From Schmidtea polychroa (lineage: Eukaryota): a DNA stretch of 64,000 nucleotides. Of this stretch, positions 5,938-48,190 are shown piece after piece. Location: NCBI GenBank assembly GCA_044892525.1, contig CM097885.1:29576001-29640000 (forward strand), in the 5' to 3' direction. The stretch's first letter is position 1; every line of letters begins with the position of its first letter. The notes beneath the pieces were generated by a model. That model was given only the letters and a program-made list of their open reading frames with translations, made no database searches and was not told where the DNA came from. A program made the position numbers and the translations under genes.

Positions 5938-6008
<71 letters not shown>
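5938..6008. repeat. (ATT)n microsatellite
   Basis: Direct reading. Confidence 0.95.
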
Positions 6009-6009
<1 letters not shown>

Positions 6010-6059
6010 AGAAAGCGCAACTCAAACATTCGTCTTATCACTATTTTAATTCCGAACAC

Positions 6060-21925: not shown

Positions 21926-23355
21926 TCAATGACAACAGATCAAATTCATGATTTCATTGATTTCTTCTTTAGTGTTGATCTTTGGCTGTCTGTTTATTAT
22001 GAGAATTGCTTCTTTGATTCTGACATTTTTCTTTTGGATGTTTCCATTAGCTATGATTTCTATTGAAATATTTTTTCTTTCCTCTGTTGGCTGACACTGC
22101 CGGAGATGTCTGCCCAACGAGGATGTTCCACCAGGATCTAGATGTTCCTTAACTCTTTGGTGCAATGTCCTGAGGGTACTTCCAATGTAGATTTCATTGC
22201 ATACATTGCACGTGATGCAATAGACGATGTTTTTTCTAAAGCACATATCTTTCGGTGTCTGGCAGTTTTTCATTGTGCAATTGTTTTCTCTATTTATGTT
22301 GCCTGCCAGAGCCCTTCTCAATGTCCAAGATTTATGTGCTATCCGAATTGGAAGACCGGTACGTTTAAGTTCTTTCAGGATCTTGAAGTCGAGTATGTCA
22401 CTGATGAATGGGATATTCAGATAGAAATATTTCTGATTCTTTTGTGTTAATTCCCTAGATCTTCTTGGGGTAGAATTCATTTTTTCAATGTCCTCACCTT
22501 GGTATCCGTTTCGGTGTAGGATTTTATTGAAATTTGATTGCTCTTTAAAGTTTTCGTTTTTCTCCGTGCATCGATTGGCTATTCTTCGTTTCTCGTTTCT
22601 TATGACATGTACTTTCTGTAAGTATGGAAGAGCTGATCTTTGGTGCATAAATATTTCTTTGCGAGCTGGTTTTCTGTAGAACCCGTATGTTGGAGTATTT
22701 TCTTCTATTTTGATTCTCAAATCCAATAAATTGAGGGATCCATCTTCTTCCGGATATTCGATTTCGAACTTAATATCTTGATGAGCCGCATTGAATGAAT
22801 GAAATATTTCCTCCGCTTCTTTTCTGTTTTTGGTCAAGATGAAGATATCATCTACATATCTTGCATAGAAACCGATGGGTTGTATGGTCCTCAGTGTCTG
22901 TCGTTCGAGGTTATCCATAAAGATGATTGCTAGCAGTCCTGATATGCTAGAACCCATAGGCAGACCTTTAACTTGTTTATAGATATTTTGTTCAAAGGTA
23001 AAATAGGTGTTCTCGAGGATAACAGTAAGTAGTTTGGTGATATTCTCGATATTCATTTCCTTTATTAACAAGTTGCTTTCTCTTAATTTCTTTTCTAAAC
23101 ATTGAATAGCCTCTGTTGGTTCGATAGATGTGTATAGTGATACGACATCAAGACTAAATGGGTATTGGAATTCTCTATGACAAGTCATGTTATTATTTAG
23201 TCTTGTCATGAGGCAGTCGCTGCTTTGAAGATGGTGTGGTATCGTGTCCAATAAAGGTTTCAAGATCTTTGCAAGGAGCCAACTTGTTTTAGTTGTTGGT
23301 CCATTTTTGTTGGACACTATAGGTCTAATTTTGTTACCAGGACCCTCTTTGTGAG

Positions 23356-23537: not shown

Positions 23538-24189
23538 CTGGAATTTAGCAATCTCCTTCCAGAAAATACATTTCTATCTTTCTTTTATTTCCTTTTTCTT
23601 AATTCTCATTTGTTATAAATATAATATAATGATATACTTTCTTTTCCTGAACTTTTTTAAAAATTTTATTTAAAATTAAAATTAGAATAAAATAAATATT
23701 ATTTAAAACTCAAAATGACAAATACTAAAATCTTTAAATTTTTTGAAGTTTCTATAATTAGCTTCTAGAAGCCTAATATAATGTTTCAAAATATTTTAAA
23801 ATAAAGCCTCCAATAACTATTTATATACGCTATTTAAATATTTCAATAAATGTGTCAATTTTGATTTTTAAATCCTATCTTTTGAAAGTATACTTCCTAA
23901 AGTTTTCTATATTATTTTAATTATTACTTTTTTTTAAATTTATTATATTTTTTATATATTATCAGTTATTCTCAAGGTCAATGACAACAGATCAAATTGA
24001 TGATTTCATTGATTTCTTCTTTAGTATTGATTTTTGGCCGTCTGTTTATGATGAGAATTGCTTTTTTGAATCTGACATTTTTCTTTTGGATGTTTCCATT
24101 TGCTATGATTTCGATTGAAATTTTTTTTGAAATTTTTTGAAATTTTTTCAAGTGGCACGGATATCAAAACCCCACTTGGATATTTGAAA

Positions 24190-25740
24190 ATGAATAAAAC
24201 TAATATTTACATGATTTTACCCAGCAATAGCTCTCCTTTAATCCATCCAAATAACAATGCTAGTAAATTTATTGTCGAACTTCAAAATCAAATCTATTTA
24301 AATGGTAGTTGGGAAGTGTCCTTGTTGGATTTTACATTTGTATACAATCTCTTTCCGTTTTACAGCAAATCCAAGATTGAATATACCAAAATGGAATCAG
24401 TATCAAAAATTGTTAAAGTGAAGATGATTTAAGACAGCTATGAAATGGTCAATCAAACAAATACAAATGTGATAATATATGTTGAAGAAAGATTGCTATT
24501 TGTACTTTCAATGTTTGAAGCGACCATTTCAATTTTTATTTGAAACTTTAACTGATGCAAAACGTCTAGGATTTACTCTAGTGCGTAAATTTGATCTTGA
24601 TGCTCGTCTCAAAACTGATGCTCTTCCCAAAACTGATGCTCTATTCAAATTTCAACTCTTGTATAACAAAGCAGTTGAGCATGTCTATACATTTTAAGAT
24701 TATTTAACAAAACATTGTGCAAATATTTTCGCTGTTGTTGAATTAGACAAATATTTTAAATTTCAAATGAATCCGACTGTTGACCAAATGAAATTTGACT
24801 CTTATTTGGTAAAAACATTAGGATTATCTAAAGAAACGTATATACAAAACTTAAAAGTTAACGAAGGAACATCGAAACCAAAAATAATTAAACTTCATCA
24901 ACAAATGTTCATTTAAAATATTGTTGAATCCATATTTGTTGGTGATGTTAGTGTTCCTCTATTGAAATCAGTATAGATTGGAAAACATGAGCAGGATGAA
25001 GTCGTTCAAATATCAATTGAAAATCCTATGTATTTATCTGTTTCAACATCATGCATAAACAATATAGAAATTAATATACGTGATGATAGCAGAAAAGTGA
25101 TAAAATTTCTAAAAGATTCAAAAACTCATTTGACTTTACATTTTCGCAAAGTGAATGACTTATCGTGATATTGTATCGCTTTATAGTGGTAGTCAAAATG
25201 GTGGAGAATTACCATATTTTATTTGTAAACAATATGGATCCGGATGGTTCCAAAAAATTGGAAGGTTTTAACTTCCCATACTTAAAAAGATTAGTTCTTT
25301 TGGCATGAAAACAGCAAAGGATGTGATAATGAAAGATCAAAAAATTCTTCCAACATTAAAAAGACATGCAATAGATGAAATTGGGAAATTGATACCTGGT
25401 GTAGCAAAAAGTTCCAAACCAAATGAAACTAAAAAACCTTCACCACCACCACCAATACAAAAACTAACACCACAACAAATTCTGAATAAACGACGAAGAT
25501 ATAGTATAAACAAAAGATTGAAAGGTCGTGGAACAATATTTCAAAATAATAAAGATCCGGCAAAACTGAATTGTGTATTTTTGATCGTCCATCTCCACAA
25601 GTAGTAATTGAAAATGGAATATTTGAAGATGTATTTCCCATGAATTCAATTACTGATTCGAGAAATGATGTTGAATTTTTTATTAATGGTTCACAGACTG
25701 AATATTTAGATTTGAATGATATTCTATTATCAATTCAATA
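24190..25740 (+). pseudogene. Decayed Polinton fragment: minor capsid, core protein and start of major capsid
   Basis: YMILPSNSS..NNASKF and NIEINIRDD..LTLHFRK parallel 33487-34491. SQNGGELPYF..QYGSGW parallels 34484. KTELCIFDRPSPQVVIENG..VEFFINGSQTEYLDLND resembles the Polinton MCP N-terminus. Multiple stops. Confidence 0.85.
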
Positions 25741-26221: not shown

Positions 26222-26344
26222 ATCATTAGTAGATGGATTGGGCACCGCTGGCACAGGGCACCGCTAGCACAGTACCCCCCCCCCTCCCCCCCCCCCGTCG
26301 GTAAGATTTTCAAAAATATTCTAAGTCTAAAAGTACATTTTTTT

Positions 26345-27260
26345 TTCAAGGTCAAATTTAAACAAAGACATATGACTCATCAAGGTCATTGAAACAAAGA
26401 CCATGAGTCATCCTATGACTCATAAAATTTTTCAAGGTCATTTAAACAAAGACCATGACTCATCCGATGACTCATCAAGGACATTTTCAAGGTCATATGA
26501 CTCATACTATGACTCATCAAGGTCAAAAAAATTTCCTCAAGGTCATTTAAACAAAGACCATGACTCATCCGATGACTCATCAAGGACATTTTCAAGGTCA
26601 TATGACTCATACTATGACTCATCAAGGTCAAAAAAAATTTCTCAAGGTCATTTAAACAAAGACCATGACTCATCAAGGTCATTTTCAAGGTCATATGACT
26701 CATCCTATGACTCATATGCCCTTGAAAAATTTTTTCAAGGTCATATGACTCATCCTATGACTCATCAAGGTCATTGAAACAAAGACCATGACTCATAGTA
26801 TGACTCATATGACCCTGAAAAATTTTTTTCAAGGTCATATGACTCATAGTATGACTCATCAGGGGCATTTTCAAGGTCGTATGACTCATAGCATGACTCA
26901 TTTGACCTTGAAAAATTTTTTTCAAGGTCATATGACTCATAATATGACTCATCAAGGTCATTTTCAAGGTCATATGACTCATAATATGACTCATCAAGGT
27001 CATTTTCAAGGTCATATGACTCATAGTATGACTCATTTGACCTTGAAAAAATTTTTCAAGGTCATATGTCTCATCCTATGACTCATCAAGGTCATTCTCA
27101 AGGTCATATGACTCATCCGATGACTCATCAAAATTTTCAAGGTCATTTTCAAGGTCATCTGAGTCATCCTATGACTCATCAAGGTCATTTTCAAGGTCAC
27201 ATGACTCATCCAAGGTTATTCCCAAGGTCATATGAGTCATCGCGATGACTCATCAAGGTC
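26345..27260. promoter_or_regulatory. Subterminal array of ATGACTCAT, TCAAGGTCA and AAACAAAG motifs (left arm)
   Basis: Dozens of shuffled copies read directly. They match AP-1, NR5A/ERR extended half-site and Fox/Sox-like consensus. Function is inferred. Confidence 0.6.
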
Positions 27261-27417
27261 ATATTATTATTTTTAAAAAATATTATTATTTTTATTATTA
27301 TTTTTAAAAATATTATTATTTTATTTTTAATTTTTTCAAAGTTCCCGCCAACGAAAATTAATAATCGATAGCTCATTTTAAAGCTCAATCCAAGACCTTT
27401 CGAATGAGCCATATATC

Positions 27418-27466
<49 letters not shown>

Positions 27467-27482
27467 CATTATTATTATTATA

Positions 27483-27543
<61 letters not shown>
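27418..27543. repeat. (ATT)n tract in left arm (longer mirror at 40358-40522)
   Basis: Direct reading. Confidence 0.95.
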
Positions 27544-27676
27544 GTATTAATCTATATACACCGAGTCTATATACTTTGAGTCTATCTGACAAAATATTTT
27601 GTCCCCCTATGGGTAATGCTCACAAGGGTACTGGTCACGCTCAACAAATCAACAAATCAACAAAACATACATTTAT

Positions 27677-28177
27677 TTAAACAATAAAATAATGTAAAAT
27701 TAACAAAGGTAAACTAAATATTGATGTACTACTATTCGCAGCAATATTGTTAGAAATTGGTAACGTTGAATTGATTTTCAGATATTCTATTGATCCTTTG
27801 ATTGTTTGAATTTCTCTTAATAATAATTCAATCTTTTTTAACAAATAATCATGCTTCTTATCAATAATCTTCATATTCTTTTTATTTTCAGTAATAGAGT
27901 TATTGAAAACCTCAATATGATCAATCAATTTAATTTTTATATTTTGTATATATTCAAATGTTAGTTCATAACTGTTTTCTAAATTCTCCAATCTTTGAGA
28001 TATTCTTTTTCCTGGATGCTTTGACCATTTTGGTTTATCGAGAATATATAAAATATCCATCAACTTGGCTGTATTCGGACAAACACATATTGATTTATTA
28101 AAAGACTCCACCGTTATTGTTGTATTGTGTGAGCACACACTCGTTATAATAATTAGCAATATGAATAGAGTTTTCAT
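27677..28177 (-). CDS. 166-aa putative secreted / GPI-anchored coiled-coil glycoprotein
   Basis: Signal peptide MKTLFILLIIITSVCS, several NxS/T sequons, heptad-rich middle, small-residue linker and hydrophobic C-terminus with no cytoplasmic tail. Confidence 0.7.
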   Translation of the reverse strand: MKTLFILLIIITSVCSHNTTITVESFNKSICVCPNTAKLMDILYILDKPKWSKHPGKRISQRLENLENSYELTFEYIQNIKIKLIDHIEVFNNSITENKKNMKIIDKKHDYLLKKIELLLREIQTIKGSIEYLKINSTLPISNNIAANSSTSIFSLPLLILHYFIV

Positions 28178-28282
28178 GGTGTATCAAATCAAAACCTTTC
28201 TTTTACATTTATAGTCTATCAACCAATCAAAATCATCCGGTATTAGTATAAATAAAACATCATATTTTAAATTATTGTAAAA

Positions 28283-28803
28283 ATGTCTCAATTTATGGAA
28301 AATCTTTTAAGAGAACTCGTCAACAGGAATATTATGGAAAGCCTATGTTTCCTGGTCGATCGGACCGAAAAGATTATAGAAGGTAATCACATTGATTATG
28401 ACGATGTGATCAATTCTGATTGTCTCGAAACCAAAAAATTCTATTTTAATAGAATTTTTAACTGTCTATGCGACGATCAGATGAAGTGGACCCGAATACT
28501 AGTAGGGTTCGCTTATATGAAAATAATAATCCAAAGAAGTCTATGGGACTCAGAGCACTATTATCAGTGGTCTCAAGAAGTAATACTTTTATAATTTATA
28601 TTTTATTAATATTTATTTTCTAGATAATCAAGTCAAAGTTTCAACCATGGATTGAAGCCAATGGCGGATGGGGAGTACTCAATCAACTCGCCAGAAATGC
28701 AAAAGAAATAGACGATCAGAAAAGAAAATTTAAAAACTATGTAAAACTTGCAACAGGTGTTGCTATTTTGTATATTTTAACCAGATTTTTAAATAAAAAT
28801 TAA
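28283..28803 (+). CDS. Bcl-2 family protein, 158 aa, two exons (28283-28579, 28624-28803)
   Basis: BH1-like KWTRILVGFAY. 44-nt GT..AG intron. Exon 2 gives BH2 WIEANGGW and a C-terminal hydrophobic anchor LATGVAILYILTRF. Confidence 0.85.
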
Positions 28804-28862
28804 TATAGTTATTTTTGTTTGATTTTTAAATAAATTTACAAACACTAATTAACTAAGATTTA

Positions 28863-29240
28863 TTAATTAACACATTCGCAGTCGTCATCTCCAAATTTCA
28901 TTATATTTTCAACGACATGATCAATACAATCATTCGTAATATTATCTTTAGATTCATCTTTAGGTTCCTCTATAGGTTCCTCTATAGGTTCATAGATTTC
29001 CTCTTGAGTTTCTTCCTCATCAATTTCTTGAGTTTCTTCCTCATCATCAAATCCTGTATCTTGACTCTCAACTAACCAGCCGATATTTAAGGCATTTGTA
29101 ATAGATAATATATCCTCCATTTTCACACCAGATATTTCTGCTAACTTTTCCAACAAAAAGTTGATTAAAAATTCTAAATAATAAATAATTCGGTAATTAA
29201 TTAATTAATCATGTTAACCTTTTTCTACAGTCATTTTCAT
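28863..29240 (-). CDS. Acidic ~110-aa protein, two exons (intron 29174-29218)
   Basis: ATG exon MKMTVEK joined in frame by a 45-nt GT..AG intron. EEETQEI and EEP repeats. Confidence 0.6.
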
Positions 29241-29369
29241 CACTTTAAAACTAAATTATAAGTTTGTTTATAGATTTTCTTTGTTAAATTTGCATGTCAT
29301 TTGCATTTATGTTGCAATTAATAAAGAGAAAAAAAACAAATCTGACTAATACATTTATTAAATATAACA

Positions 29370-29780
29370 TTAAAATATTTGTGAAAGTCTAGCAGACATA
29401 ATTTTCCAAATAGGAGAATATACATCATTATTATCAACTTTATATCCCTGGATTGCAATTGTTATATACCAATTTTCATTTTCTTTGAAAGCGATTTCAT
29501 CAAAGGAATCATAAAATCTTGCATATTTATTGTTGAACCATGCATGTTGATTACACGATAGATTCGAATCTATCCGTTTAAAAACATCATCAATAGTTTT
29601 GACATCAATCATTGAAAGCGTGCCGGATAAGAATTCAAATTTAGTTGGAATTAGCTTGACTGGTGCAACCAATTTCATATTGATTTCTTCTTTCAAAAAA
29701 TACATTTTGTAGTTGTGGAACATTTGAACTGGTTGTACCATTTCTTTAGGTTTTTCGGTGCTTGAAATTTTCTTGGTCAT
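29370..29780 (-). CDS. 136-aa unknown protein, possibly OB-fold ssDNA-binding
   Basis: Clean ATG ORF with CCAAT and TATA upstream. The beta-rich C-terminus WYITIAIQGY..SPIWKIMSARL is only suggestive. Confidence 0.6.
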   Translation of the reverse strand: MTKKISSTEKPKEMVQPVQMFHNYKMYFLKEEINMKLVAPVKLIPTKFEFLSGTLSMIDVKTIDDVFKRIDSNLSCNQHAWFNNKYARFYDSFDEIAFKENENWYITIAIQGYKVDNNDVYSPIWKIMSARLSQIF

Positions 29781-30140
29781 CGTGAATAATGAATAAATTT
29801 AAATGTTACAGGGTTTTTATACCTTTGACTCATGCCTATCAACCAATCAGATTATAGCATGTCTTTGTTTAAATTGCATTCAAAATGCATTGATGTTGCA
29901 TTGTCACATGTTCTATTTACAGATTTATTATTAATGTTTAAATTATTACATGTTTTGATATATGTACAGATTTATTATTAATATGTTTCATTATTATTAA
30001 TGTTTTTACTATTATTACTATTCATATTTCTATTACTATTATTATTATTATTACTATTATTATTATTACTATTATTATTTCAAATATAAAACACAATAAA
30101 ACACAATAAAAAAGATAAAACACAATAAAAAATACATTTA

Positions 30141-30554
30141 TTAATAACCCAAATCTACAATCTTGGAGTAGTGAAACCTTCTCAGAGTTTTCACTAACTC
30201 CCATTCGACATATCGCCGATATCGATCGGCGCAACATGAGCATCCGATGATGCACTGGTACTCTGGCTCCATTTGTTTGATGGTTCTGTTAATCTTTATA
30301 TCCCACAGAAACTGGTGAAATACATCCATGATTCGAATTTGAGTCGCATAGAATATCAGATCTGGAATGATCTCAGGTTCGCGATCCTTGATAATTTCAA
30401 TAATTTGAGGATAATAATATTTTATCCTTTTTATCATAACTTCTAAATATTTCTCTAAAATAATAAATAGTAAATAATGTGAAAAAAAAATTTTAAATTT
30501 ACCGGAATCGTCGATATCTTTCATGAGGGTTGCAGAGCTTGGTAATTTGTACAT
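30141..30554 (-). CDS. Unknown protein with CxxxCxCC motif, probable 48-nt intron (30455-30502)
   Basis: ATG at 30554. In-frame T-rich GT..AG segment. QCIIGCSCCADR near the C-terminus. Confidence 0.6.
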   Translation of the reverse strand: MYKLPSSATLMKDIDDSGKFKIFFSHYLLFIILEKYLEVMIKRIKYYYPQIIEIIKDREPEIIPDLIFYATQIRIMDVFHQFLWDIKINRTIKQMEPEYQCIIGCSCCADRYRRYVEWELVKTLRRFHYSKIVDLGY

Positions 30555-30627
30555 AGTGTTGAAAAAATGAATTCTAAACAAAAACCGTTTGTTTAAATCA
30601 ATCAATAACCAATTAGAAATTAACCAA

Positions 30628-31065
30628 TTAGAAATCGACCAATGAAATTATCTCATTTCGAACATTGTCAACAAATTCTCTATACTCCAAATTTCTCAAC
30701 CCCAACATGACAACCTTTCCACTAGGAAACACGTTGACACATATAGGGTTATATTTTAATAGTCTTAGTGCCGGAAACAATTCCGGTTCAAACATACAAT
30801 CACATTTTTTCGACATGTTATATAGATTGATACTATGTCCCATATCCATAGTAACGGTAATTGATTGGATTTTAATATTATTTATTCGATATTGTAATTT
30901 ATTAATATCCAAAGGTTTCTTACATCCCATGATTCTGCATTTACCAGTCTTGAAAAATATTATCGGATATTTCCCACTTCTATCGATAATTTGCTGGGGT
31001 TTCCCTGGTGGGAACCTCATATTCGATACATCAAAATTTCCTCGATAATTTATATTTGCTAACAT
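30628..31065 (-). CDS. TATA-box-binding-protein-like, 145 aa
   Basis: Two TBP repeats: IIFFKTGKCRIMG and KIQSITVTMD..INL..FEPELFPAL..VNVFPSGKVVMLG (TBP has LIFxSGKxVxTG and YEPELFPGL). Confidence 0.85.
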   Translation of the reverse strand: MLANINYRGNFDVSNMRFPPGKPQQIIDRSGKYPIIFFKTGKCRIMGCKKPLDINKLQYRINNIKIQSITVTMDMGHSINLYNMSKKCDCMFEPELFPALRLLKYNPICVNVFPSGKVVMLGLRNLEYREFVDNVRNEIISLVDF

Positions 31066-31164
31066 TATTAAATCATTTATGAAAATTAGTCTTTATATAC
31101 AAATTGAGCACGAGTTCATTAAATCATCGAATATAAACAAATACACATTTATAAAATATTTGAA

Positions 31165-31791
31165 ATGGAATTAAGAAATGATGCTGTATACCAAATCGTT
31201 GGTCCGAGTGGTAGTGGAAAAACATTATTTGTTTGTAAATTACTAAAATCCAATTTATTCAAATCAAAATTCAACAGGATTTATTGGCATAGGGGTGCTG
31301 ATGAAGAACATGGATTAACTCAATCAAGTTTCTGTAAATTAAAAAACATGAAAATAGTAAAGGGATTCGATAAAAACTGGTCCAGCCGATTAAAGAAAGG
31401 CGATGTCATTATTATCGATGATTTGTATCAAGAAGCTAATAAAGAAAAAGATTTTAATAATTTATTTACAAAGATTAGCAGACATGTCGGTGTAACAGTT
31501 ATTTTCATAACTCAAAATCTATTTCATCAAGGTGGGGCACATCGAACACGTAATTTAAATGTACAATATTTAGTCATTTTCAAGAATCCTAGAGATGCAA
31601 CAGTGATTGATTTTCTTGCACGTCAAGCATACCCTAACAATCGTAATTTTCTTATCAGTGCATTTCAAGATGCTACAAAAATACCTCATGGATATATATT
31701 TCTTGATTTCACACAACAATGTCCCGATGATTTACGTGTAAAAACAGATATTTTCAACCCAAAAGGTGCCATGGTTTATAAACAAAGTTGA
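31165..31791 (+). CDS. Polinton packaging ATPase (A32/FtsK-like)
   Basis: Walker A GPSGSGKT, Walker B IIIDDL, SRH..VIFITQNLF, FKNPRD. Confidence 0.95.
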   Translation: MELRNDAVYQIVGPSGSGKTLFVCKLLKSNLFKSKFNRIYWHRGADEEHGLTQSSFCKLKNMKIVKGFDKNWSSRLKKGDVIIIDDLYQEANKEKDFNNLFTKISRHVGVTVIFITQNLFHQGGAHRTRNLNVQYLVIFKNPRDATVIDFLARQAYPNNRNFLISAFQDATKIPHGYIFLDFTQQCPDDLRVKTDIFNPKGAMVYKQS

Positions 31792-31809
31792 AAACCTCTA
31801 TGAATAATA

Positions 31810-32343
31810 ATGTTTCTAAAAGCAAGGGTGAAAAATATTAGGAAATTAAGAAAAGGTATTAGAAAGACTATTAAAGTTCCAAAGGTTCCACCAACAACTA
31901 GTTATACACCATCTAAAAAACTTGTAACTAAAAATTTCTCTGCAATGAATCTTATTTCGAAAAATCCTAAACCTAAACGTAAAACCCGTAAAACCCGTAA
32001 AACCGGTAAAAAAGTAGTTAAAAATCATCGCAGTTTTCCATTTTTTAATGCATTGTTAAAGGCTCCGAGTATGAAAAGAATGAATATATTGCAATCATTC
32101 CCAAATTTTGTTGTCGATGATTTACTCAATATTATACTTAAAGTAGTCAAAGGCAAAATTAAAATCAGTAAATCAAAAAAGCATTTATTGAGCAAACATA
32201 GGAAACCTTTATTATCTTTAGTAAATAATAAAAATCGTAAGCAAATGAGGAAAATTATATATAAACAACAAGGTGGATTTATTGGTGCCTTGATACCTCT
32301 GGCATTATCATTATTAGGTGGAGTTGTAGGAAATCAATCATAA
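31810..32343 (+). CDS. Basic virion core-like protein with QGG cleavage site and amphipathic tail
   Basis: Lys/Arg-rich. Ends KQQGGFIGALIPLALSLLGG, an adenain-type xxGG site followed by a hydrophobic helix. Confidence 0.75.
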   Translation: MFLKARVKNIRKLRKGIRKTIKVPKVPPTTSYTPSKKLVTKNFSAMNLISKNPKPKRKTRKTRKTGKKVVKNHRSFPFFNALLKAPSMKRMNILQSFPNFVVDDLLNIILKVVKGKIKISKSKKHLLSKHRKPLLSLVNNKNRKQMRKIIYKQQGGFIGALIPLALSLLGGVVGNQS

Positions 32344-32346
32344 ACA

Positions 32347-32574
32347 ATGGGTGCTAATCCTTCATTGCCCGACATTAAATTTAATTTTAAATCTTCTTGT
32401 TGTAATGGAGAAGATTTGGACGAACCCAGAAGACGAAGCCGGTTTCGGTGGAGTGGCAAAATTAAACAAAAGAGTTCCGAATTCGAAAAAAGAAACCCAG
32501 AAGTGGTTATCAGATCAGCTTGCGTACAGTTTGAACAAACCAATGCGGAAAAGATTTCCAACAAGAGCGTATAA
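32347..32574 (+). CDS. 75-aa putative myristoylated protein overlapping the integrase 5' end
   Basis: ATG 3 nt after the previous stop. MGANPS fits MGxxxS. CC pair at residues 18-19. Confidence 0.5.
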   Translation: MGANPSLPDIKFNFKSSCCNGEDLDEPRRRSRFRWSGKIKQKSSEFEKRNPEVVIRSACVQFEQTNAEKISNKSV

Positions 32575-32792
32575 AACATTTGGTATTGACGATTTATGGC
32601 AAATGGATTTGATGGAGATGATACCATATTCGAAAATTAACAATGGGAATAAATATATTTTAACATGTATTAATGTATACAGCAGGTTTACACGAGCAAT
32701 ACCAGTCAAGGCAAAATCTGCAGAAGAAATGTCCAAGGCAATTAATATTTTATTTAAAGATGGACATCCTAATAATTTGCAAACAGATTTAG

Positions 32793-32860
<68 letters not shown>

Positions 32861-33490
32861 TTAGGTAAAGAATTCTACAATAGCAAAGTTAAGCAAATCC
32901 TCGATAAACTGAAAATAAATCATTACTCGGTACATTCTCAATACAAAGCTGCCCATGTTGAAAGATTTAATCGAACATTGAGAGATAGATTAAAGAAATT
33001 GTTCGTGCATCAAGGTAATAAAAAATGGGTAAATGCTTTACCGAAAATAATAACAAGTTATAATCATTCATCACATCGAGGACTGAATGGATTGAGACCG
33101 GTTGATATTACATCAAAAACACCATTATCTAAAAAATCTGTAAAAATTGCAAAACCTAAATATAAAGTCGGTGACCATGTTAGAATTAGTAAAATTAGTG
33201 CATCACCATTTATTAAAAATTTTGATACAAATTGGAGTGATGAAGTCTTTGTAATTTCAAAAATAAATACTAAACAGAATCCTGTAATGTATGTCATCAA
33301 AGACAATGATAATAATATTGTACAGGGGAAATATAATGAGCAGGAATTACAAGTCATTCCTCCCCCAAAAGTATTTAGAATTCAAAAAATATTGAAAACT
33401 AAAAAGGTCGGTAAGGATAAACAATACTATATCAAATGGCACGGTTATCAAAACCCGTCATGGATATCGTCAAAAGACCTAGTAAAATGA
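32405..33490 (+). CDS. Retroviral-type (rve) integrase with C-terminal chromodomain; intron 32793-32864
   Basis: WQMDLMEM, spliced LQTDLGKEF, VERFNRTL, YKVGDHVRIS, IQKILK..YYIKWHGY..SW. The poly-Ile stretch is a GT-(ATT)n-AG intron. Confidence 0.93.
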
Positions 33491-34491
33491 ATTTTTATAT
33501 TATTTTACCTAGCAATAGCTGTCCACTTATTCATCCAGATAATAAAGCCAGCAAATTCAGGGTCAATCTTCAAAATCCGATATATTTGGATAATAGCTGG
33601 GAAGTTGCTCTGTTGGATTTTACATTTGTATACCAAGCCTTTCCATTTTATAGTAAGGCTAAAATTGGATACAAAAAGAATGAGTGGCAGGATAGATTAT
33701 TGTCTATGATCATTGATAATGCAGATGATGAAGTTCGGTTGTCTAACTCAACTGATCCAGCTGTGAAAATGTATATTAACCATTCATATATAGTAGTTGA
33801 ATGTAAACATTATCCTTTTACTGTAAAATTTGATAGTTTGGAAATGGCAAAACGATTGGAATTAAAAACCCAAAGTCATAAAGTTCTTTCCGATAAATTC
33901 ACTATGCTACGACCGGGATATTCCAAAACTGTACAGCGATTTGAACCAATTTTATTTACAGTTTCATATCCGGGTATAACGTCTGGTACATTTGAGTTCA
34001 AAGATAATTTATACATTTCGAAATTGGATGAATTACAGACATATTTAAAACAAAGTGGTTTATTTAAATCATTGGAAATATCAGACAGATTCAAATTCAG
34101 TTTGAATCCCGAATTTACTGAAATTACTTTTGATGCAAATCTAATAAAAACATTAGGATTATCAAAAGCAACATATGCTCAAGATGATCAAGGTACCCTA
34201 GCTCCGAAAATAATTAAACTTCACCAACAAATGTTCATCTATAGTAATATTGTTGATCCTGTAATTGTTGGCGATTCTTTGGTCCCACTCCTGAAATCTG
34301 TTTGGATTGAAAAATATGAACATGATGAAGTAGTCAATATAAATATCGATAATCCCATGTATTTACCTGTGTCAACCTCATGTATAAACAATATAGAAAT
34401 AAATATACGTGATGATTCTGGTAAATTAATCGCATTTCCAAAAGATTCAAAAACTCATTTAACATTACATTTTCGTAAAGTAGATGGCTAA
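33487..34491 (+). CDS. Polinton minor capsid (penton) protein, single copy
   Basis: MNFYIILPSNS..NKASKF..WEVAL and FIYSNIV..VGDSLVPLL..PMYLPV..IEINIRDDSG..LTLHFRK. Confidence 0.9.
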   Translation: MNFYIILPSNSCPLIHPDNKASKFRVNLQNPIYLDNSWEVALLDFTFVYQAFPFYSKAKIGYKKNEWQDRLLSMIIDNADDEVRLSNSTDPAVKMYINHSYIVVECKHYPFTVKFDSLEMAKRLELKTQSHKVLSDKFTMLRPGYSKTVQRFEPILFTVSYPGITSGTFEFKDNLYISKLDELQTYLKQSGLFKSLEISDRFKFSLNPEFTEITFDANLIKTLGLSKATYAQDDQGTLAPKIIKLHQQMFIYSNIVDPVIVGDSLVPLLKSVWIEKYEHDEVVNINIDNPMYLPVSTSCINNIEINIRDDSGKLIAFPKDSKTHLTLHFRKVDG

Positions 34492-34700
34492 TTCGGATAT
34501 TATAAGTATGTATAGTGGTAGCCAATCTGGCGGTGAATTACCATATTTTATTGGGAAACAGTACGGATCAGGATGGTTGAGAACAATTGGTAGATTTGCA
34601 CTTCCTATTCTTAAACGTATTGGTAGTTTTGGTATGAAAACTGCTAAAGATGTTATTATGAATGAACAGAAAATATTACCATCTCTAAAATCAAATGCTT
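34484..34700 (+). pseudogene. Core protein gene truncated by the fold-back junction
   Basis: QSGG and QYGSG cleavage-like sites and amphipathic WLRTIGRFALPILKRIG. The sequence turns into its own reverse complement at 34698. A longer homolog lies at 25155-25550. Confidence 0.85.
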
Positions 34701-34831
34701 TAGCAGTTTTCATACCAAAACTACCAATACGTTTAAGAATAGGAAGTGCAAATCTACCAATTGTTCTCAACCATCCTGATCCGTACTGTTTCCCAATAAA
34801 ATATGGTAATTCACCGCCAGATTGGCTACCA
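34516..34831. repeat. Central 134-bp hairpin with 48-nt loop
   Basis: 34516-34649 is the reverse complement of 34698-34831. Confidence 0.95.
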
Positions 34832-35029
34832 ACTTGTTATTATTTTCGGTAAAGCATTTACCCATTTTTTATTACCTTGATGCACGAACAATTTCTTTAA
34901 TCTATCTCTCAATGTTCGATTAAATCTTTCAACATGGGCAGCTTTGTATTGAGAATGTACCGAGTAATGATTTATTTTCAGTTTATCGAGGATTTGCTTA
35001 ACTTTGCTATTGTAGAATTCTTTACCTAA

Positions 35030-35109
<80 letters not shown>

Positions 35110-35497
35110 CTAAATCTGTTTGCAAATTATTAGGATGTCCATCTTTAAATAAAATATTAATTGCCTTGGACATTTCTTCTGCAGATTTTGCCTTGACTGG
35201 TATTGCTCGTGTAAACCTGCTGTATACATTAATACATGTTAAAATATATTTATTCCCATTGTTAATTTTCGAATATGGTATCATCTCCATCAAATCCATT
35301 TGCCATAAATCGTCAATACCAAATGTTTTATACGCTCTTGTTGGAAATCTTTTCCGCATTGGTTTGTTCAAACTGTACGCAAGCTGATCTGATAACCACT
35401 TCTGGGTTTCTTTTTTCGAATTCGGAACTCTTTTGTTTAATTTTGCCACTCCACCGAAACCGGCTTCGTCTTCTGGGTTCGTCCAAATCTTCTCCAT
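34831..35497 (-). pseudogene. Mirror integrase copy, 3'-truncated; intron 35026-35109
   Basis: Matches the left copy up to LPKIITS. Intron is 84 nt versus 72 nt. Confidence 0.9.
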
Positions 35498-35555
35498 TAC
35501 AACAAGAAGATTTAAAATTAAATTTAATGTCGGGCAATGAAGGATTAGCACCCAT
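35328..35555 (-). CDS. Mirror copy, putative myristoylated protein
   Basis: Identical translation to 32347-32574. Confidence 0.5.
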   Translation of the reverse strand: MGANPSLPDIKFNFKSSCCNGEDLDEPRRRSRFRWSGKIKQKSSEFEKRNPEVVIRSACVQFEQTNAEKISNKSV

Positions 35556-35558
35556 TGT

Positions 35559-36092
35559 TTATGATTGATTTCCTACAACTCCACCTAATAATGATAATGC
35601 CAGAGGTATCAAGGCACCAATAAATCCACCTTGTTGTTTATATATAATTTTCCTCATTTGCTTACGATTTTTATTATTTACTAAAGATAATAAAGGTTTC
35701 CTATGTTTGCTCAATAAATGCTTTTTTGATTTACTGATTTTAATTTTGCCTTTGACTACTTTAAGTATAATATTGAGTAAATCATCGACAACAAAATTTG
35801 GGAATGATTGCAATATATTCATTCTTTTCATACTCGGAGCCTTTAACAATGCATTAAAAAATGGAAAACTGCGATGATTTTTAACTACTTTTTTACCGGT
35901 TTTACGGGTTTTACGGGTTTTACGTTTAGGTTTAGGATTTTTCGAAATAAGATTCATTGCAGAGAAATTTTTAGTTACAAGTTTTTTAGATGGTGTATAA
36001 CTAGTTGTTGGTGGAACCTTTGGAACTTTAATAGTCTTTCTAATACCTTTTCTTAATTTCCTAATATTTTTCACCCTTGCTTTTAGAAACAT
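35559..36092 (-). CDS. Mirror copy, basic core-like protein
   Basis: Identical translation to 31810-32343. Confidence 0.75.
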   Translation of the reverse strand: MFLKARVKNIRKLRKGIRKTIKVPKVPPTTSYTPSKKLVTKNFSAMNLISKNPKPKRKTRKTRKTGKKVVKNHRSFPFFNALLKAPSMKRMNILQSFPNFVVDDLLNIILKVVKGKIKISKSKKHLLSKHRKPLLSLVNNKNRKQMRKIIYKQQGGFIGALIPLALSLLGGVVGNQS

Positions 36093-36110
36093 TATTATTC
36101 ATAGAGGTTT

Positions 36111-36737
36111 TCAACTTTGTTTATAAACCATGGCACCTTTTGGGTTGAAAATATCTGTTTTTACACGTAAATCATCGGGACATTGTTGTGTGAAATCAAG
36201 AAATATATATCCATGAGGTATTTTTGTAGCATCTTGAAATGCACTGATAAGAAAATTACGATTGTTAGGGTATGCTTGACGTGCAAGAAAATCAATCACT
36301 GTTGCATCTCTAGGATTCTTGAAAATGACTAAATATTGTACATTTAAATTACGTGTTCGATGTGCCCCACCTTGATGAAATAGATTTTGAGTTATGAAAA
36401 TAACTGTTACACCGACATGTCTGCTAATCTTTGTAAATAAATTATTAAAATCTTTTTCTTTATTAGCTTCTTGATACAAATCATCGATAATAATGACATC
36501 GCCTTTCTTTAATCGGCTGGACCAGTTTTTATCGAATCCCTTTACTATTTTCATGTTTTTTAATTTACAGAAACTTGATTGAGTTAATCCATGTTCTTCA
36601 TCAGCACCCCTATGCCAATAAATCCTGTTGAATTTTGATTTGAATAAATTGGATTTTAGTAATTTACAAACAAATAATGTTTTTCCACTACCACTCGGAC
36701 CAACGATTTGGTATACAGCATCATTTCTTAATTCCAT
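36111..36737 (-). CDS. Mirror copy, packaging ATPase
   Basis: Identical translation to 31165-31791. Confidence 0.95.
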   Translation of the reverse strand: MELRNDAVYQIVGPSGSGKTLFVCKLLKSNLFKSKFNRIYWHRGADEEHGLTQSSFCKLKNMKIVKGFDKNWSSRLKKGDVIIIDDLYQEANKEKDFNNLFTKISRHVGVTVIFITQNLFHQGGAHRTRNLNVQYLVIFKNPRDATVIDFLARQAYPNNRNFLISAFQDATKIPHGYIFLDFTQQCPDDLRVKTDIFNPKGAMVYKQS

Positions 36738-36836
36738 TTCAAATATTTTATAAATGTGTATTTGTTTATATTCGATGATTTAATGAACTCGTGCTCAATT
36801 TGTATATAAAGACTAATTTTCATAAATGATTTAATA

Positions 36837-37274
36837 ATGTTAGCAAATATAAATTATCGAGGAAATTTTGATGTATCGAATATGAGGTTCCCACCAGGGA
36901 AACCCCAGCAAATTATCGATAGAAGTGGGAAATATCCGATAATATTTTTCAAGACTGGTAAATGCAGAATCATGGGATGTAAGAAACCTTTGGATATTAA
37001 TAAATTACAATATCGAATAAATAATATTAAAATCCAATCAATTACCGTTACTATGGATATGGGACATAGTATCAATCTATATAACATGTCGAAAAAATGT
37101 GATTGTATGTTTGAACCGGAATTGTTTCCGGCACTAAGACTATTAAAATATAACCCTATATGTGTCAACGTGTTTCCTAGTGGAAAGGTTGTCATGTTGG
37201 GGTTGAGAAATTTGGAGTATAGAGAATTTGTTGACAATGTTCGAAATGAGATAATTTCATTGGTCGATTTCTAA
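36837..37274 (+). CDS. Mirror copy, TBP-like protein
   Basis: Identical translation to 30628-31065. Confidence 0.85.
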   Translation: MLANINYRGNFDVSNMRFPPGKPQQIIDRSGKYPIIFFKTGKCRIMGCKKPLDINKLQYRINNIKIQSITVTMDMGHSINLYNMSKKCDCMFEPELFPALRLLKYNPICVNVFPSGKVVMLGLRNLEYREFVDNVRNEIISLVDF

Positions 37275-37347
37275 TTGGTTAATTTCTAATTGGTTATTGA
37301 TTGATTTAAACAAACGGTTTTTGTTTAGAATTCATTTTTTCAACACT

Positions 37348-37761
37348 ATGTACAAATTACCAAGCTCTGCAACCCTCATGAAAGATATCGACGATTCCGG
37401 TAAATTTAAAATTTTTTTTTCACATTATTTACTATTTATTATTTTAGAGAAATATTTAGAAGTTATGATAAAAAGGATAAAATATTATTATCCTCAAATT
37501 ATTGAAATTATCAAGGATCGCGAACCTGAGATCATTCCAGATCTGATATTCTATGCGACTCAAATTCGAATCATGGATGTATTTCACCAGTTTCTGTGGG
37601 ATATAAAGATTAACAGAACCATCAAACAAATGGAGCCAGAGTACCAGTGCATCATCGGATGCTCATGTTGCGCCGATCGATATCGGCGATATGTCGAATG
37701 GGAGTTAGTGAAAACTCTGAGAAGGTTTCACTACTCCAAGATTGTAGATTTGGGTTATTAA
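37348..37761 (+). CDS. Mirror copy, CxxxCxCC protein (intron 37400-37447)
   Basis: Identical translation to the left copy. Confidence 0.6.
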   Translation: MYKLPSSATLMKDIDDSGKFKIFFSHYLLFIILEKYLEVMIKRIKYYYPQIIEIIKDREPEIIPDLIFYATQIRIMDVFHQFLWDIKINRTIKQMEPEYQCIIGCSCCADRYRRYVEWELVKTLRRFHYSKIVDLGY

Positions 37762-38121
37762 TAAATGTATTTTTTATTGTGTTTTATCTTTTTTATTGTG
37801 TTTTATTGTGTTTTATATTTGAAATAATAATAGTAATAATAATAATAGTAATAATAATAATAATAGTAATAGAAATATGAATAGTAATAATAGTAAAAAC
37901 ATTAATAATAATGAAACATATTAATAATAAATCTGTACATATATCAAAACATGTAATAATTTAAACATTAATAATAAATCTGTAAATAGAACATGTGACA
38001 ATGCAACATCAATGCATTTTGAATGCAATTTAAACAAAGACATGCTATAATCTGATTGGTTGATAGGCATGAGTCAAAGGTATAAAAACCCTGTAACATT
38101 TAAATTTATTCATTATTCACG

Positions 38122-38532
38122 ATGACCAAGAAAATTTCAAGCACCGAAAAACCTAAAGAAATGGTACAACCAGTTCAAATGTTCCACAACTACAAAATGT
38201 ATTTTTTGAAAGAAGAAATCAATATGAAATTGGTTGCACCAGTCAAGCTAATTCCAACTAAATTTGAATTCTTATCCGGCACGCTTTCAATGATTGATGT
38301 CAAAACTATTGATGATGTTTTTAAACGGATAGATTCGAATCTATCGTGTAATCAACATGCATGGTTCAACAATAAATATGCAAGATTTTATGATTCCTTT
38401 GATGAAATCGCTTTCAAAGAAAATGAAAATTGGTATATAACAATTGCAATCCAGGGATATAAAGTTGATAATAATGATGTATATTCTCCTATTTGGAAAA
38501 TTATGTCTGCTAGACTTTCACAAATATTTTAA
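38122..38532 (+). CDS. Mirror copy, 136-aa unknown protein
   Basis: Identical translation to 29370-29780. Confidence 0.6.
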   Translation: MTKKISSTEKPKEMVQPVQMFHNYKMYFLKEEINMKLVAPVKLIPTKFEFLSGTLSMIDVKTIDDVFKRIDSNLSCNQHAWFNNKYARFYDSFDEIAFKENENWYITIAIQGYKVDNNDVYSPIWKIMSARLSQIF

Positions 38533-38660
38533 TGTTATATTTAATAAATGTATTAGTCAGATTTGTTTTTTTCTCTTTATTAATTGCAACATAAATGCAA
38601 ATGACATGCAAATTTAACAAAGAAAATCTATAAACAAACTTATAATTTAGTTTTAAAGTG

Positions 38661-39038
38661 ATGAAAATGACTGTAGAAAAAGGTTAACATGATTAATTAA
38701 TTAATTACCGAATTATTTATTATTTAGAATTTTTAATCAACTTTTTGTTGGAAAAGTTAGCAGAAATATCTGGTGTGAAAATGGAGGATATATTATCTAT
38801 TACAAATGCCTTAAATATCGGCTGGTTAGTTGAGAGTCAAGATACAGGATTTGATGATGAGGAAGAAACTCAAGAAATTGATGAGGAAGAAACTCAAGAG
38901 GAAATCTATGAACCTATAGAGGAACCTATAGAGGAACCTAAAGATGAATCTAAAGATAATATTACGAATGATTGTATTGATCATGTCGTTGAAAATATAA
39001 TGAAATTTGGAGATGACGACTGCGAATGTGTTAATTAA
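38661..39038 (+). CDS. Mirror copy, acidic protein (intron 38683-38727)
   Basis: Identical translation to the left copy. Confidence 0.6.
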
Positions 39039-39097
39039 TAAATCTTAGTTAATTAGTGTTTGTAAATTTATTTAAAAATCAAACAAAAATAACTATA

Positions 39098-39618
39098 TTA
39101 ATTTTTATTTAAAAATCTGGTTAAAATATACAAAATAGCAACACCTGTTGCAAGTTTTACATAGTTTTTAAATTTTCTTTTCTGATCGTCTATTTCTTTT
39201 GCATTTCTGGCGAGTTGATTGAGTACTCCCCATCCGCCATTGGCTTCAATCCATGGTTGAAACTTTGACTTGATTATCTAGAAAATAAATATTAATAAAA
39301 TATAAATTATAAAAGTATTACTTCTTGAGACCACTGATAATAGTGCTCTGAGTCCCATAGACTTCTTTGGATTATTATTTTCATATAAGCGAACCCTACT
39401 AGTATTCGGGTCCACTTCATCTGATCGTCGCATAGACAGTTAAAAATTCTATTAAAATAGAATTTTTTGGTTTCGAGACAATCAGAATTGATCACATCGT
39501 CATAATCAATGTGATTACCTTCTATAATCTTTTCGGTCTGATCGACCAGGAAACATAGGCTTTCCATAATATTCCTGTTGACGAGTTCTCTTAAAAGATT
39601 TTCCATAAATTGAGACAT
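39098..39618 (-). CDS. Mirror copy, Bcl-2 family protein (exons 39618-39322, 39277-39098)
   Basis: Same motifs. One substitution, DRTEK versus DQTEK. Confidence 0.85.
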
Positions 39619-39723
39619 TTTTACAATAATTTAAAATATGATGTTTTATTTATACTAATACCGGATGATTTTGATTGGTTGATAGACTATAAATGTAAAA
39701 GAAAGGTTTTGATTTGATACACC

Positions 39724-40224
39724 ATGAAAACTCTATTCATATTGCTAATTATTATAACGAGTGTGTGCTCACACAATACAACAATAACGGTGGAGTCTTT
39801 TAATAAATCAATATGTGTTTGTCCGAATACAGCCAAGTTGATGGATATTTTATATATTCTCGATAAACCAAAATGGTCAAAGCATCCAGGAAAAAGAATA
39901 TCTCAAAGATTGGAGAATTTAGAAAACAGTTATGAACTAACATTTGAATATATACAAAATATAAAAATTAAATTGATTGATCATATTGAGGTTTTCAATA
40001 ACTCTATTACTGAAAATAAAAAGAATATGAAGATTATTGATAAGAAGCATGATTATTTGTTAAAAAAGATTGAATTATTATTAAGAGAAATTCAAACAAT
40101 CAAAGGATCAATAGAATATCTGAAAATCAATTCAACGTTACCAATTTCTAACAATATTGCTGCGAATAGTAGTACATCAATATTTAGTTTACCTTTGTTA
40201 ATTTTACATTATTTTATTGTTTAA
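39724..40224 (+). CDS. Mirror copy, secreted / GPI-anchored protein
   Basis: Identical translation to 27677-28177. Confidence 0.7.
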   Translation: MKTLFILLIIITSVCSHNTTITVESFNKSICVCPNTAKLMDILYILDKPKWSKHPGKRISQRLENLENSYELTFEYIQNIKIKLIDHIEVFNNSITENKKNMKIIDKKHDYLLKKIELLLREIQTIKGSIEYLKINSTLPISNNIAANSSTSIFSLPLLILHYFIV

Positions 40225-40357
40225 ATAAATGTATGTTTTGTTGATTTGTTGATTTGTTGAGCGTGACCAGTACCCTTGTGAGCATTACCCATAGGGGGAC
40301 AAAATATTTTGTCGGATAGACTCAAAGTATATAGACTCGGTGTATATAGATTAATAC

Positions 40358-40522
<165 letters not shown>

Positions 40523-40677
40523 GATATATGGCTCATTCGAAAGGTCTTGGATTGAGCTTTAAAATGAGCTATCGATTATTAATTTTCGTTGGCGGGAACT
40601 TTGAAAAAATTAAAAATAAAATAATAATATTTTTAAAAATAATAATAAAAATAATAATATTTTTTAAAAATAATAAT

Positions 40678-41332
40678 ATGACCTTGATGAGTCATCGCGA
40701 TGACTCATATGACCTTGGGAATGACCTTGGATGAGTCATGTGACCTTGAAAATGACCTTGATGAGTCATAGGATGACTCAGATGACCCTGAAAATGACCT
40801 TGAAAATTTTGATGAGTCATCGGATGAGTCATATGACCTTGAGAATGACCTTGATGAGACATAGGATGAGTCATATGACCTTGAAAAAAATTTTCAAGGT
40901 CAAATGAGTCATACTGTGAGTCATATGACCTTGAAAATGACCTTGATGAGTCATATTATGAGTCATATGACCTTGAAAATGACCTTGATGAGTCATATTA
41001 TGAGTCATATGACCTCGAAAAAATTTTTCAGGGCCAAATGAGTCATACTATGAGTCATACGACCTTGAAAATGACCTTGATGAGTCATACTATGAGTCAT
41101 GGTCTTTGTTTCAATGGCCTTGATGAGTCATAGGATGAGTCATATGACCTTGAAAAATTTTTTTCAAGGGCATATGAGTCATATGACCTTGAAAATGACC
41201 TTGATGAGTCATCGGATGAGTCATGGTCTTTGTTTAAATGCCCTTGAAAAATTTTATGAGTCATAGGATGACTCATGGTCTTTGTTTCAATGACCTTGAT
41301 GAGTCATATGTCTTTGTTTAAATTTGACCTTG
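40678..41332. promoter_or_regulatory. Subterminal motif array (right arm, shorter)
   Basis: Reverse-complement array ATGAGTCAT / TGACCTTGA with fewer units than the left arm. Confidence 0.6.
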
Positions 41333-42259
41333 AAAAAAAAATGTACTTTTAGACTTAGAATATTTTTGAAAATCTTACCGACGGGGGGGGGGTACTGTGC
41401 TAGCGGTGCCCTGTGCCAGCGGTGCCCAATCCATCTACTATCATTATTTCCCCAATCATTTTACTCATTTAACAATTATTTTGGTTTTATTATTTGGTTA
41501 TCCTCAACAACCCTATATTGTAAAACTAATATTACTAAATGAATTTTAAAGTTATAATATTGCATATTAATGTTAAAGGTCAAATATCATATAAGGAATT
41601 AATTTATTCGTGCGTTACGTAATCTAATTCAATTACTTGGTGATTACGGAGGCTCTACAATTAAAATAATAGTACAGTTGTTATTCAAATATAAATTTTA
41701 AAATGACAACGCCAAAAATGTACTTACATCGATGACTCTAGGAGATTGAATAAAAAAACAAGAGATTCTCTACTAAATGCTAGGAAACTCTTGGATATGA
41801 AGACTAATAGATATTATGGCAAATGCACTAAAGAAACTTAAAATGAATACAATAAATTGATATTATATCCCCATACATATTGTTAATTCACACTTCCCAT
41901 CGACACTAACATGTTTAACACTTACAATTTCATTTTCTGAAGTGTTTTCAATAATGGAATGTAATGTATGACACCCAGTTTCATAGAATAACTTTACTTC
42001 TATTATCAAGAAAGTCAATAATTTGATATTATATAAAAACGTAACCTGAGTGTTGACACAGCACAGTAAAAATTCATTTTAACTTTTAATAGATGTAACA
42101 ATTACACAAAACATCTGGTTATTCTGCAAATTCCTTTCTGGACAATATCGTGAGACATGATTCGCTCAGCATCGATTCAATATTATCGGTTTATCTTTAT
42201 TATTTTGCTTACATTTTTTTCCAGGCTTAAATTTCGCGAGTTTTGGTGTTTCGGTGTCG

Positions 42260-44476: not shown

Positions 44477-44614
44477 AGTAGGTAGATAGTGGCCTACGGG
44501 AACAATTACCCCCCCCCGGGGGGGGGGGGGGGGGGTTTGTTCCCAAATTTTTATTACGCAATTGTTCCCAACTCATTTTTTTGCTTTCAGGGATTTTTGG
44601 TCCAAATTTTTTTT

Positions 44615-45690: not shown

Positions 45691-45699
45691 TAAATTTTT

Positions 45700-46400
45700 T
45701 AAAATTAAAGTAAATTATGGTTCTAAAAATTGAATTACAGTAAATTATGGACTAAGATTTTTAAATTACAGTAAATTATGGTCCAAATTTTTCAATTAAA
45801 GTAAATTATGGTTCAAATTTTTCAAATAAGGTAATTATGGTCCTAAAAAATTAAATTACAGTAAATTATGGTTCTAAAAAATTATATTACAGTAAATTAT
45901 GGTCTAAAAAAAATTGAATTACAGTAAATTATGGACTAAGATTTTTAAATTACAGTAAATTATGGTCCAAATTTTTGAATTAAAGTAAATTATGGGCTTA
46001 GATTTTTCAATTAAAGTAATGAATGGGCTCAAATAACTAAATTAAGGTTCAAAATTTTAAATTAAAGTAAATAATGGTCCTAAAAAATTAAATTAAAGTT
46101 AATTATGGTCCTAAAAAATTAAATTAAGGTTCATATTTTCGAATTAAAGTAATTAATATGCTCAGATTTTTCAATTAAAGTAAATAATGGCTCAAATTTT
46201 TCAAATTACAGTAAATAATGGTTCTAAAAAATTAAATTAAAGTAAATTATGGTTCTAAAAATTAAATTAAAGTAAATTATGGTTCTAAAAAAATTAAATT
46301 ACAGTAAATTATGGTTCTAAAAAATTAAATTAAAGTAAATTATGGTCCAAATTTAAAAATTAAGTAATCAATGGTAAAAAAATTAAATTAAAGTAATAAT
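45700..46400. repeat. ~30-bp AATTA(C/A)AGTAAATTATGG repeats; mirror 58615-59310
   Basis: Direct reading. Confidence 0.9.

Positions 46401-48130: not shown

Positions 48131-48190
<60 letters not shown>

Follow-up and report, generated by a model that had tools for sequence, protein, structure and literature searches.

Adenoviruses, whose capsid lineage is related to that of the Mavericks, have protein-primed ends, and their NFI and Oct-1 sites adjoin the core origin within ∼50 bp. The adenovirus A repeats, spaced at 21 bp, coincide in part with the E1A enhancer and are bound by COUP-TF and Oct-1, as described in the available part of PMC5033970. Baculovirus hrs are dispersed tandem blocks of 0.4–0.9 kb with TRE (TGACTCA) and CRE sites; their ∼72-bp units are built around a 30-bp palindrome to which the viral protein IE1 binds, and they have 0–2 TRE each and showed an enhancer strength that correlated with motif count (PMC13513840, in the portion available). 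For KSHV, an unrelated virus, the accessible text of PMC12700447 reports that the copy number of the terminal repeat, which is read by viral LANA on the episome, sets enhancer strength for inducible genes, 21 versus 5 copies having been tested. The hallmarks of Maverick/Polinton elements are AG-type ends and a 6-bp target duplication, and their terminal inverted repeats (TIRs) are reported to measure 46–1447 bp (PMC8097293, in part). No host-factor array appears among the Maverick descriptions in the available text of that paper, from which the word "enhancer" is absent, and the literature searched, with the founding Maverick papers and Repbase outside its scope, held no description of such arrays in Mavericks.

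We analyzed a window of 64,000 nucleotides of Schmidtea polychroa DNA (GCA_044892525.1, contig CM097885.1, positions 29,576,001 to 29,640,000), in which a 15.2-kb Maverick/Polinton copy carries a dense array of short words near both of its ends. The array is real and non-random. The relevant features, in window positions, are as follows.

26222–26227, + strand: left target-site duplication, ATCATT, 6 bp
26228–41439, no strand assigned: defective Maverick/Polinton copy, a fold-back palindrome, defined by its ends, target duplication, arms, and genes
26228–33059 and 34831–41439: fold-back arms, 6.6–6.8 kb each
26228–26345, + strand: left terminal head, with end motif, 16-bp duplication, and C-run
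26346–27261, + strand: left array, 80 words including mismatched ones, phased at 10.36 bp
28283–28594, + strand: weak Bcl-2-like ORF (PF00452, E 0.01, below cut-off)
29370–29780, − strand: 136-aa ORF, conserved in relatives at 26–38% identity
29814–29877, − strand: promoter-like stretch before the 136-aa ORF, in the order AACAAAGAC, CCAAT, AP-1, TATA; mirrored near 38034
30628–31065, − strand: TBP-like gene (PF00352, E 2e-15), the anchor for finding relatives
40679–41333, − strand: right array, 58 words including mismatched ones, of the same grammar, phased at 10.32 bp
41334–41439, − strand: right terminal head
41440–41445, + strand: right target-site duplication, ATCATT, 6 bp

The copy begins with AGTAG at 26228 and ends with CTACT at 41439; the inverted AG-type end motif is present and matches (AGT)2 at 5 of 6 bases. 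It encodes an integrase (rve, E 8e-6, below the Pfam cut-off, plus chromo), an A32-type packaging ATPase (Pox_A32, E 4e-7), and an ORF conserved in relatives that we take to be a minor capsid. The ends, the 6-bp target duplication, the integrase, the A32-like ATPase, and the minor-capsid-like ORF are all shared with the Mavericks/Polintons in the available part of PMC8097293, and the end region of ∼1 kb lies within the TIR range given there. Unlike those elements, the copy is a fold-back palindrome in which no genes for a (protein-primed) polymerase, major capsid, or protease were found, and because these are missing it was filed as a defective Maverick derivative. The gene regions of the two arms differ at 2 of 5243 aligned nt. 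The two heads show no substitutions in 105 aligned nt and a 12-nt gap in the C-run, and the left head is likely to be the core for integrase and protein priming. A sequence-only reading had described the arrays as terminal repeats. They do occupy both ends of the copy, but their position is subterminal, 118 bp from the terminus, and the whole arm is mirrored, so that this copy cannot show the array in its parent's TIR. The unmirrored fold-back center (33060–34830) holds the minor-capsid-like ORF with a small nested inversion at its end near 34690–34830, an arrangement that resembles a snap-back defective genome. A (TAT)n microsatellite within the integrase ORF (32794–32860 and 35030–35108), which is flanked by GT..AG and whose length differs between the arms, is probably an intron. 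In a search of sequencing runs with 27600–33400, part of the query was present in 20 of the 24 listed runs and at least half of it in 10, across 7 studies; no RNA run is listed among those with the query, and the search says nothing on expression.

The left array consists of 37 words of AP-1 type, 37 of NR5A/ERR type (33 of them pointing inward), and six copies of AACAAAGAC. Exact matches number 35 for ATGASTCAT (33 C-centered and 2 G-centered), 29 for TCAAGGTCA (27 forward and 2 reverse), and 6 for (T/G)AAACAAAG, and the right array has 24 ATGASTCAT, 17 + 1 TCAAGGTCA, and 4 words of the third type. When the left array was shuffled 1000 times with dinucleotides preserved, the third word being scored as AACAAAGAC, the three words reached means of 0.06, 0.06, and 0.01 and maxima of 2, 1, and 1, and the remaining 62.4 kb of the window contain no ATGASTCAT and a single TCAAGGTCA. 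The earlier claim of ∼900 bp of AP-1, NR5A-type, and third words is thus confirmed for 26346–27261, as is the difference in copy number between the arms, whose arrays differ by 210-bp and 51-bp gaps. The phrase "almost wholly" motif-built went too far: the array is dense, but exact words cover 68% of it (620/917 nt) and 75% is reached with one mismatch. A (T/G)-headed third word could be counted, as given above, but the word is better read as AACAAAGAC. The repeat units (42, ∼51, and 105 bp) are made of 9-mers and occur near the element ends only. The bases 5′ of AACAAAGAC vary in relatives, and on this ground the third word was not taken for a Forkhead site. A coding role for the arrays was also rejected: no frame spans either one, the longest covering 133 of 305 codons on the left and 87 of 218 on the right, and the ORFs differ between arms. 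Just inside the left array, at 27343–27351, lies the word TTCCCGCC, which we presume to be E2F-like.

By analogy, the array may work like the viral repeat enhancers, although it belongs to none of these groups (hrs, adenovirus left end, or KSHV). Tandem blocks with TRE sites are the likeness to baculovirus hrs, from which it differs in placing 35 AP-1 words together with receptor sites at the end of a linear integrating element; the hr arrangement of dispersed, ∼70-bp units with a 30-bp palindrome was not found in it. With the left end of adenovirus, as far as the accessible text of PMC5033970 describes it, the array shares host-factor sites just inside the terminus and a spacing in whole turns, and in adenovirus a nuclear receptor (COUP-TF) binds there, yet the words are others, the sites are about ten times more numerous, and no NFI/Oct-1 pair stands beside the terminus. 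Read by eye, the first 118 bp of the element contain no full NFI or octamer word. The likeness to the KSHV terminal repeat lies in the dependence of enhancer strength on copy number described for that virus.

Among periods from 8 to 15 bp, 10.36 bp fits the 80 words of the left array best (R 0.68 across 916 bp), and the words of the right arm were in phase at 10.32 bp (R 0.71). A null that permuted the steps (0 of 500) was set aside as too lenient in favor of step randomization. With the A/T-tract steps randomized singly, by type, or across all step types, the observed left-arm phase was reached in 29, 204, and 26 of 3000 trials, respectively; the same three randomizations gave weaker results on the right (123, 736, and 56 of 3000). 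Overall, p was 0.01–0.07 for the left arm and up to 0.25 for the right, and the arms are not independent. The A/T tracts themselves showed no phasing at 10–10.8 bp (R 0.41). The reversed receptor words (4 left and 3 right) remained in phase. Because closely packed 9-mers would fall near one per turn anyway, the phasing lends moderate support to the words being read by proteins on one DNA face.

That spacers vary while motifs are kept was also part of the sequence-only reading, and it held for one of the two doublets. In the 16 AP-1 doublets of the left arm, the 3-nt spacer takes six forms, and recurrent variant alleles number 4 in 3 spacer columns versus 1 in 18 motif columns (binomial p 0.002); the sole recurrent motif variant is a flip of the central C/G, which preserves the palindrome. 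Counting all alleles, spacer versus motif was 5 versus 3 on the left (p 0.002) and 4 versus 4 on the right (p 0.018). No such bias was seen for the receptor doublet, with 7 motif alleles versus 1 spacer allele on the left (p 0.71) and p 0.54 on the right. The claim also found no backing in the substitutions private to one arm, of which 13 of 17 fall in motifs versus an expected share of 0.79 (p 0.77), so that recent change is unfiltered. These private substitutions are ∼70 times denser in the array than in the genes, an excess that could reflect decay, conversion from other copies, or error in the repeat consensus. The array copies are mutually dependent, which makes the motif and spacer p values indicative only, and homogenization by slippage can mimic conservation in such an array.

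Relatives of the element were sought through its TBP-like protein, which has 77 homologues, many adjoining Maverick ATPase and integrase genes. An alignment of the window protein with 43 of the 77 yielded 80 of the 90 confirmed metagenome loci and one viral locus. Loci L001–L075 were analyzed, six matches at ≤30% identity being left out, and the relatives formed 52 clusters, of which 15 were hand-picked as close (by an ATPase at ∼70% identity, a match to the 136-aa ORF, or a high TBP rank) and 37 were distant. No comparable array was present in L001–L081, the best having 2 sites per 300 bp, and almost no locus there reaches an end. The individual words did recur. AACAAAGAC was found in the non-coding DNA of 7 of the 15 close families, ranking 1st of 3241 9-mers with 3 G/C, and its flanks were 31% identical among relatives, which equals background. 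In the close families AACAAAGACA was seen 12 times in non-coding DNA versus 0.1 expected and not at all in coding DNA; it was absent from the non-coding DNA of the 37 distant families, as was ACAAAGAC, and AACAAAGAC is confined to the close clade. ATGASTCAT occurred 4 times in non-coding DNA versus 0.1 expected (2 of 15 close families) and 3 times versus 0.2 (2 of 37 distant families). CAAGGTCA was barely enriched in non-coding DNA, with 1 versus 0.2 in the close set (1 of 15 families; 40 of 200 shuffles) and 3 versus 0.5 in the distant set (3 of 37; 4 of 200). The close set also gave a high count for one of the three control words (13 versus 6.6; 4 of 200 shuffles), so that modest enrichment ratios mean little. 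Viral contigs yielded 0 matches when scanned for the array pattern, 0 of 7 candidates confirmed with the ATPase, and one distant match with the TBP alignment. None of 149 viral loci (29 with the AP-1 doublet and 120 with the composite word, full flanks being available for 80 of the latter) encodes a relative of the element genes. The densest short viral cluster, L082, was rejected as a related array: it is a 7-bp microsatellite on what appears to be the contig of a large DNA virus.

Within the element, the promoter-like stretch at 29814–29877 is identical over 17 nt to the first of the array's AACAAAGAC units, and similar strings lie upstream of genes in L003, L007, and L008. In the distant L061 an AP-1 doublet lies upstream of an ORF. 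In non-coding DNA, only CCAAT was significantly linked to TATA boxes (p 9e-5); for AP-1 and AACAAAGAC the tie was not significant (p 0.10–0.12). Tandem promoter-like repeats combining AACAAAGAC with octamer-like or CRE words were noted in L008 (1095–1385, directly preceding the TBP-like gene), L030 (754–957), L003 (4426), and L007 (5127). The 136-aa ORF was considered as a single-strand DNA-binding protein, an assignment that no family match supports. L061 (1–18406), a distant Maverick that is nearly complete, has genes for a polymerase and for KilA-N and C2H2 proteins, tRNA-like stretches (by eye) at about 5400–5590, and AP-1 words before two ORFs. A polymerase is present in the relative L017 (PF03175), and among the accessory genes of the relatives (L017 225–719, L003 4008–4316, and L038 1710–2168) are those for a ubiquitin-conjugating enzyme, a dual-specificity phosphatase, and a RING finger.

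One relative, L007, has G and C runs comparable to those at the termini of both elements of the window; runs of at least 7 G/C were found in only 2 of 75 loci, and the other locus ends at its run. About 150–210 nt past the first run of L007 lie AAAGAC+ATGAGTCAT and TCAAGGTCA, at most 70 nt apart. When the 52 loci were shuffled 300 times, a comparable co-occurrence of AP-1 and receptor words appeared 4 times, and it was present in none of the 149 unrelated viral loci bearing an AP-1 word. Beyond short words and G/C runs, the stretch does not align with the element end in the window. It looks like an unamplified three-word module, in a single case, and no target duplication confirms its putative end.

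The third word contains AACAAAG, which presumably resembles a Sox/TCF site. The AP-1 and receptor words match host-factor consensus sites over all nine bases: the 35 exact AP-1 words fit the consensus (G/C/A)TGA(C/G/T)TCA(T/C) (PMC7897836, Table 2), and the 29 exact TCAAGGTCA words fit an NR5A/ERR monomer site. A Drosophila FTZ-F1 element containing TCAAGGTCA was bound by Schistosoma FTZ-F1 (SmFTZ-F1) in EMSA, and two CAAGGCCA rows were not bound, according to the part of the PMC8673669 supplement available (S4). A literature search on flatworm NR5A found nothing. Neither the 20 ORFs of the window nor another 66 (60 of the 118 ORFs of close relatives, 4 of L061, and 2 window repeats) encode a bZIP, nuclear-receptor, or HMG protein, in a scan that covered partial contigs and that spliced genes would escape. 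Since none was found in these 86 ORFs, the array words are probably read by host proteins.

Other elements lie nearby in the window, which belongs to an AT-rich animal-type genome. A second one (44477–60532) is a gene-less 16-kb palindrome with Maverick-type ends and the target duplication TATGGT, inserted in a third Maverick within the major-capsid gene. The arrays of this palindrome are made of different words, and a 31-bp array in it has a phase of 10.25 bp. At 24187–25604, immediately to the left of the inserted 15.2-kb copy, is a broken older related Maverick whose minor-capsid-like ORF is ∼50% identical. A Penelope-like RT/GIY-YIG ORF lies at 21926–23209 and a broken Tc1/IS630-like transposase at about 5990–7060 (by eye).

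Our preferred reading, to which we give a probability of roughly 55%, is that the array is an amplified subterminal host-factor enhancer of a TBP-carrying Maverick lineage. A starting module of the Sox/TCF-like AACAAAGAC, a full AP-1 palindrome, and an NR5A/ERR-type monomer site would have been multiplied by slippage or unequal exchange to 60–80 sites that follow each other at roughly a helical turn. Loading on one DNA face, bZIP and nuclear-receptor proteins of the host would open chromatin at the element end, and the array would drive accessory genes 1–4 kb inward, the promoters of which carry the same words. The enhancer proposed by the sequence-only reading gains indirect support from the recurrence of two of the three words in non-coding promoter-like DNA and from the AP-1 spacer bias; which proteins bind, whether the array acts as an enhancer, and its inducibility by injury or growth signals we infer from the sequence. 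Induction by wounding is a tentative candidate, drawn from the role of AP-1 in other animals, and is made plausible by Hydra, in which AP-1 motif accessibility rises after injury (PMC8049744, in the part available).

Amplification without function is unlikely to account for the array. A real single promoter module could have been multiplied by slippage in non-essential subterminal DNA, adding nothing; tandem arrays of unrelated words do occur in L001, L009, L039, L053, L057, and the neighboring gene-less element, L007 has single word copies only, and both the unfiltered private changes and the 210-bp and 51-bp blocks that differ between arms are in keeping with neutrality. Blind slippage does not, however, predict that the left AP-1 doublet keeps both words across six spacer forms, that the reversed receptor words stay in phase, or that the A/T-tract step lengths hold the helical phase (29/3000). 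The possibility that the words are read by an element-encoded protein, their likeness to host motifs being convergent or due to chance, is most plausible for AACAAAGAC, which is limited to the close clade and presumably longer than the Sox/TCF core, and the lineage has many small ORFs without a family. It appears very improbable given two words that match a host consensus over nine bases and the lack of any fitting DNA-binding family in the 86 ORFs scanned.

In a further alternative, host factors or an ATPase complex of the element would sit on the phased sites and open or mark the end, either for protein-primed initiation or for encapsidation, in the manner of the adenovirus auxiliary-origin sites and A repeats. 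The array lies at the genome end, at both ends of the copy, its helical phasing parallels the spacing of the A repeats, baculovirus hrs are both origins and TRE/CRE-rich enhancers, and no gene starts inward within 1 kb of the array, the nearest inward-pointing one being the Bcl-2-like ORF at 1.0 kb. We nevertheless regard a replication or packaging signal as distinctly unlikely, in view of an array that starts past the adenovirus-type core contacts, words that also occur in internal promoter-like stretches, and a mobile gene-less neighbor, though of another family, whose arms hold none of the three words. In adenovirus itself, COUP-TF binding did not track packaging efficiency, as reported in the available part of PMC5033970. 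The more specific suggestion of an origin of the adenovirus-ITR type, made by the sequence-only reading, fits poorly with the 118-bp distance from the terminus and with a head that has no full NFI or octamer word. The enhancer and the replication or packaging readings need not exclude each other, as the hrs illustrate.

We know of no trigger that switches animal Mavericks on. Maverick virions were unobserved as of PMC8097293, in the part of that paper available. If the array is the amplified host-factor enhancer that we favor, element transcripts and accessible ends are predicted after injury or in particular tissues, dependent on jun/fos and an NR5A/ERR-type gene, and every inserted copy, if active, would place a strong inducible enhancer beside host genes. 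A speculative and rather unlikely extension is that the phased end array for three host factors is a coincidence detector, which would wake the element in regenerating or germ-line cells, open its end for protein-primed copying, and pass late genes to its own TBP. The proposed inputs, AP-1 as the injury or growth signal and the NR5A/ERR-type receptor with the Sox/TCF-type factor as the tissue state, are similarly conjectural. That reading, if true, would name the missing trigger of animal Maverick activity. The array, whose function is proposed on sequence evidence alone, may offer a testable trigger for animal Mavericks.
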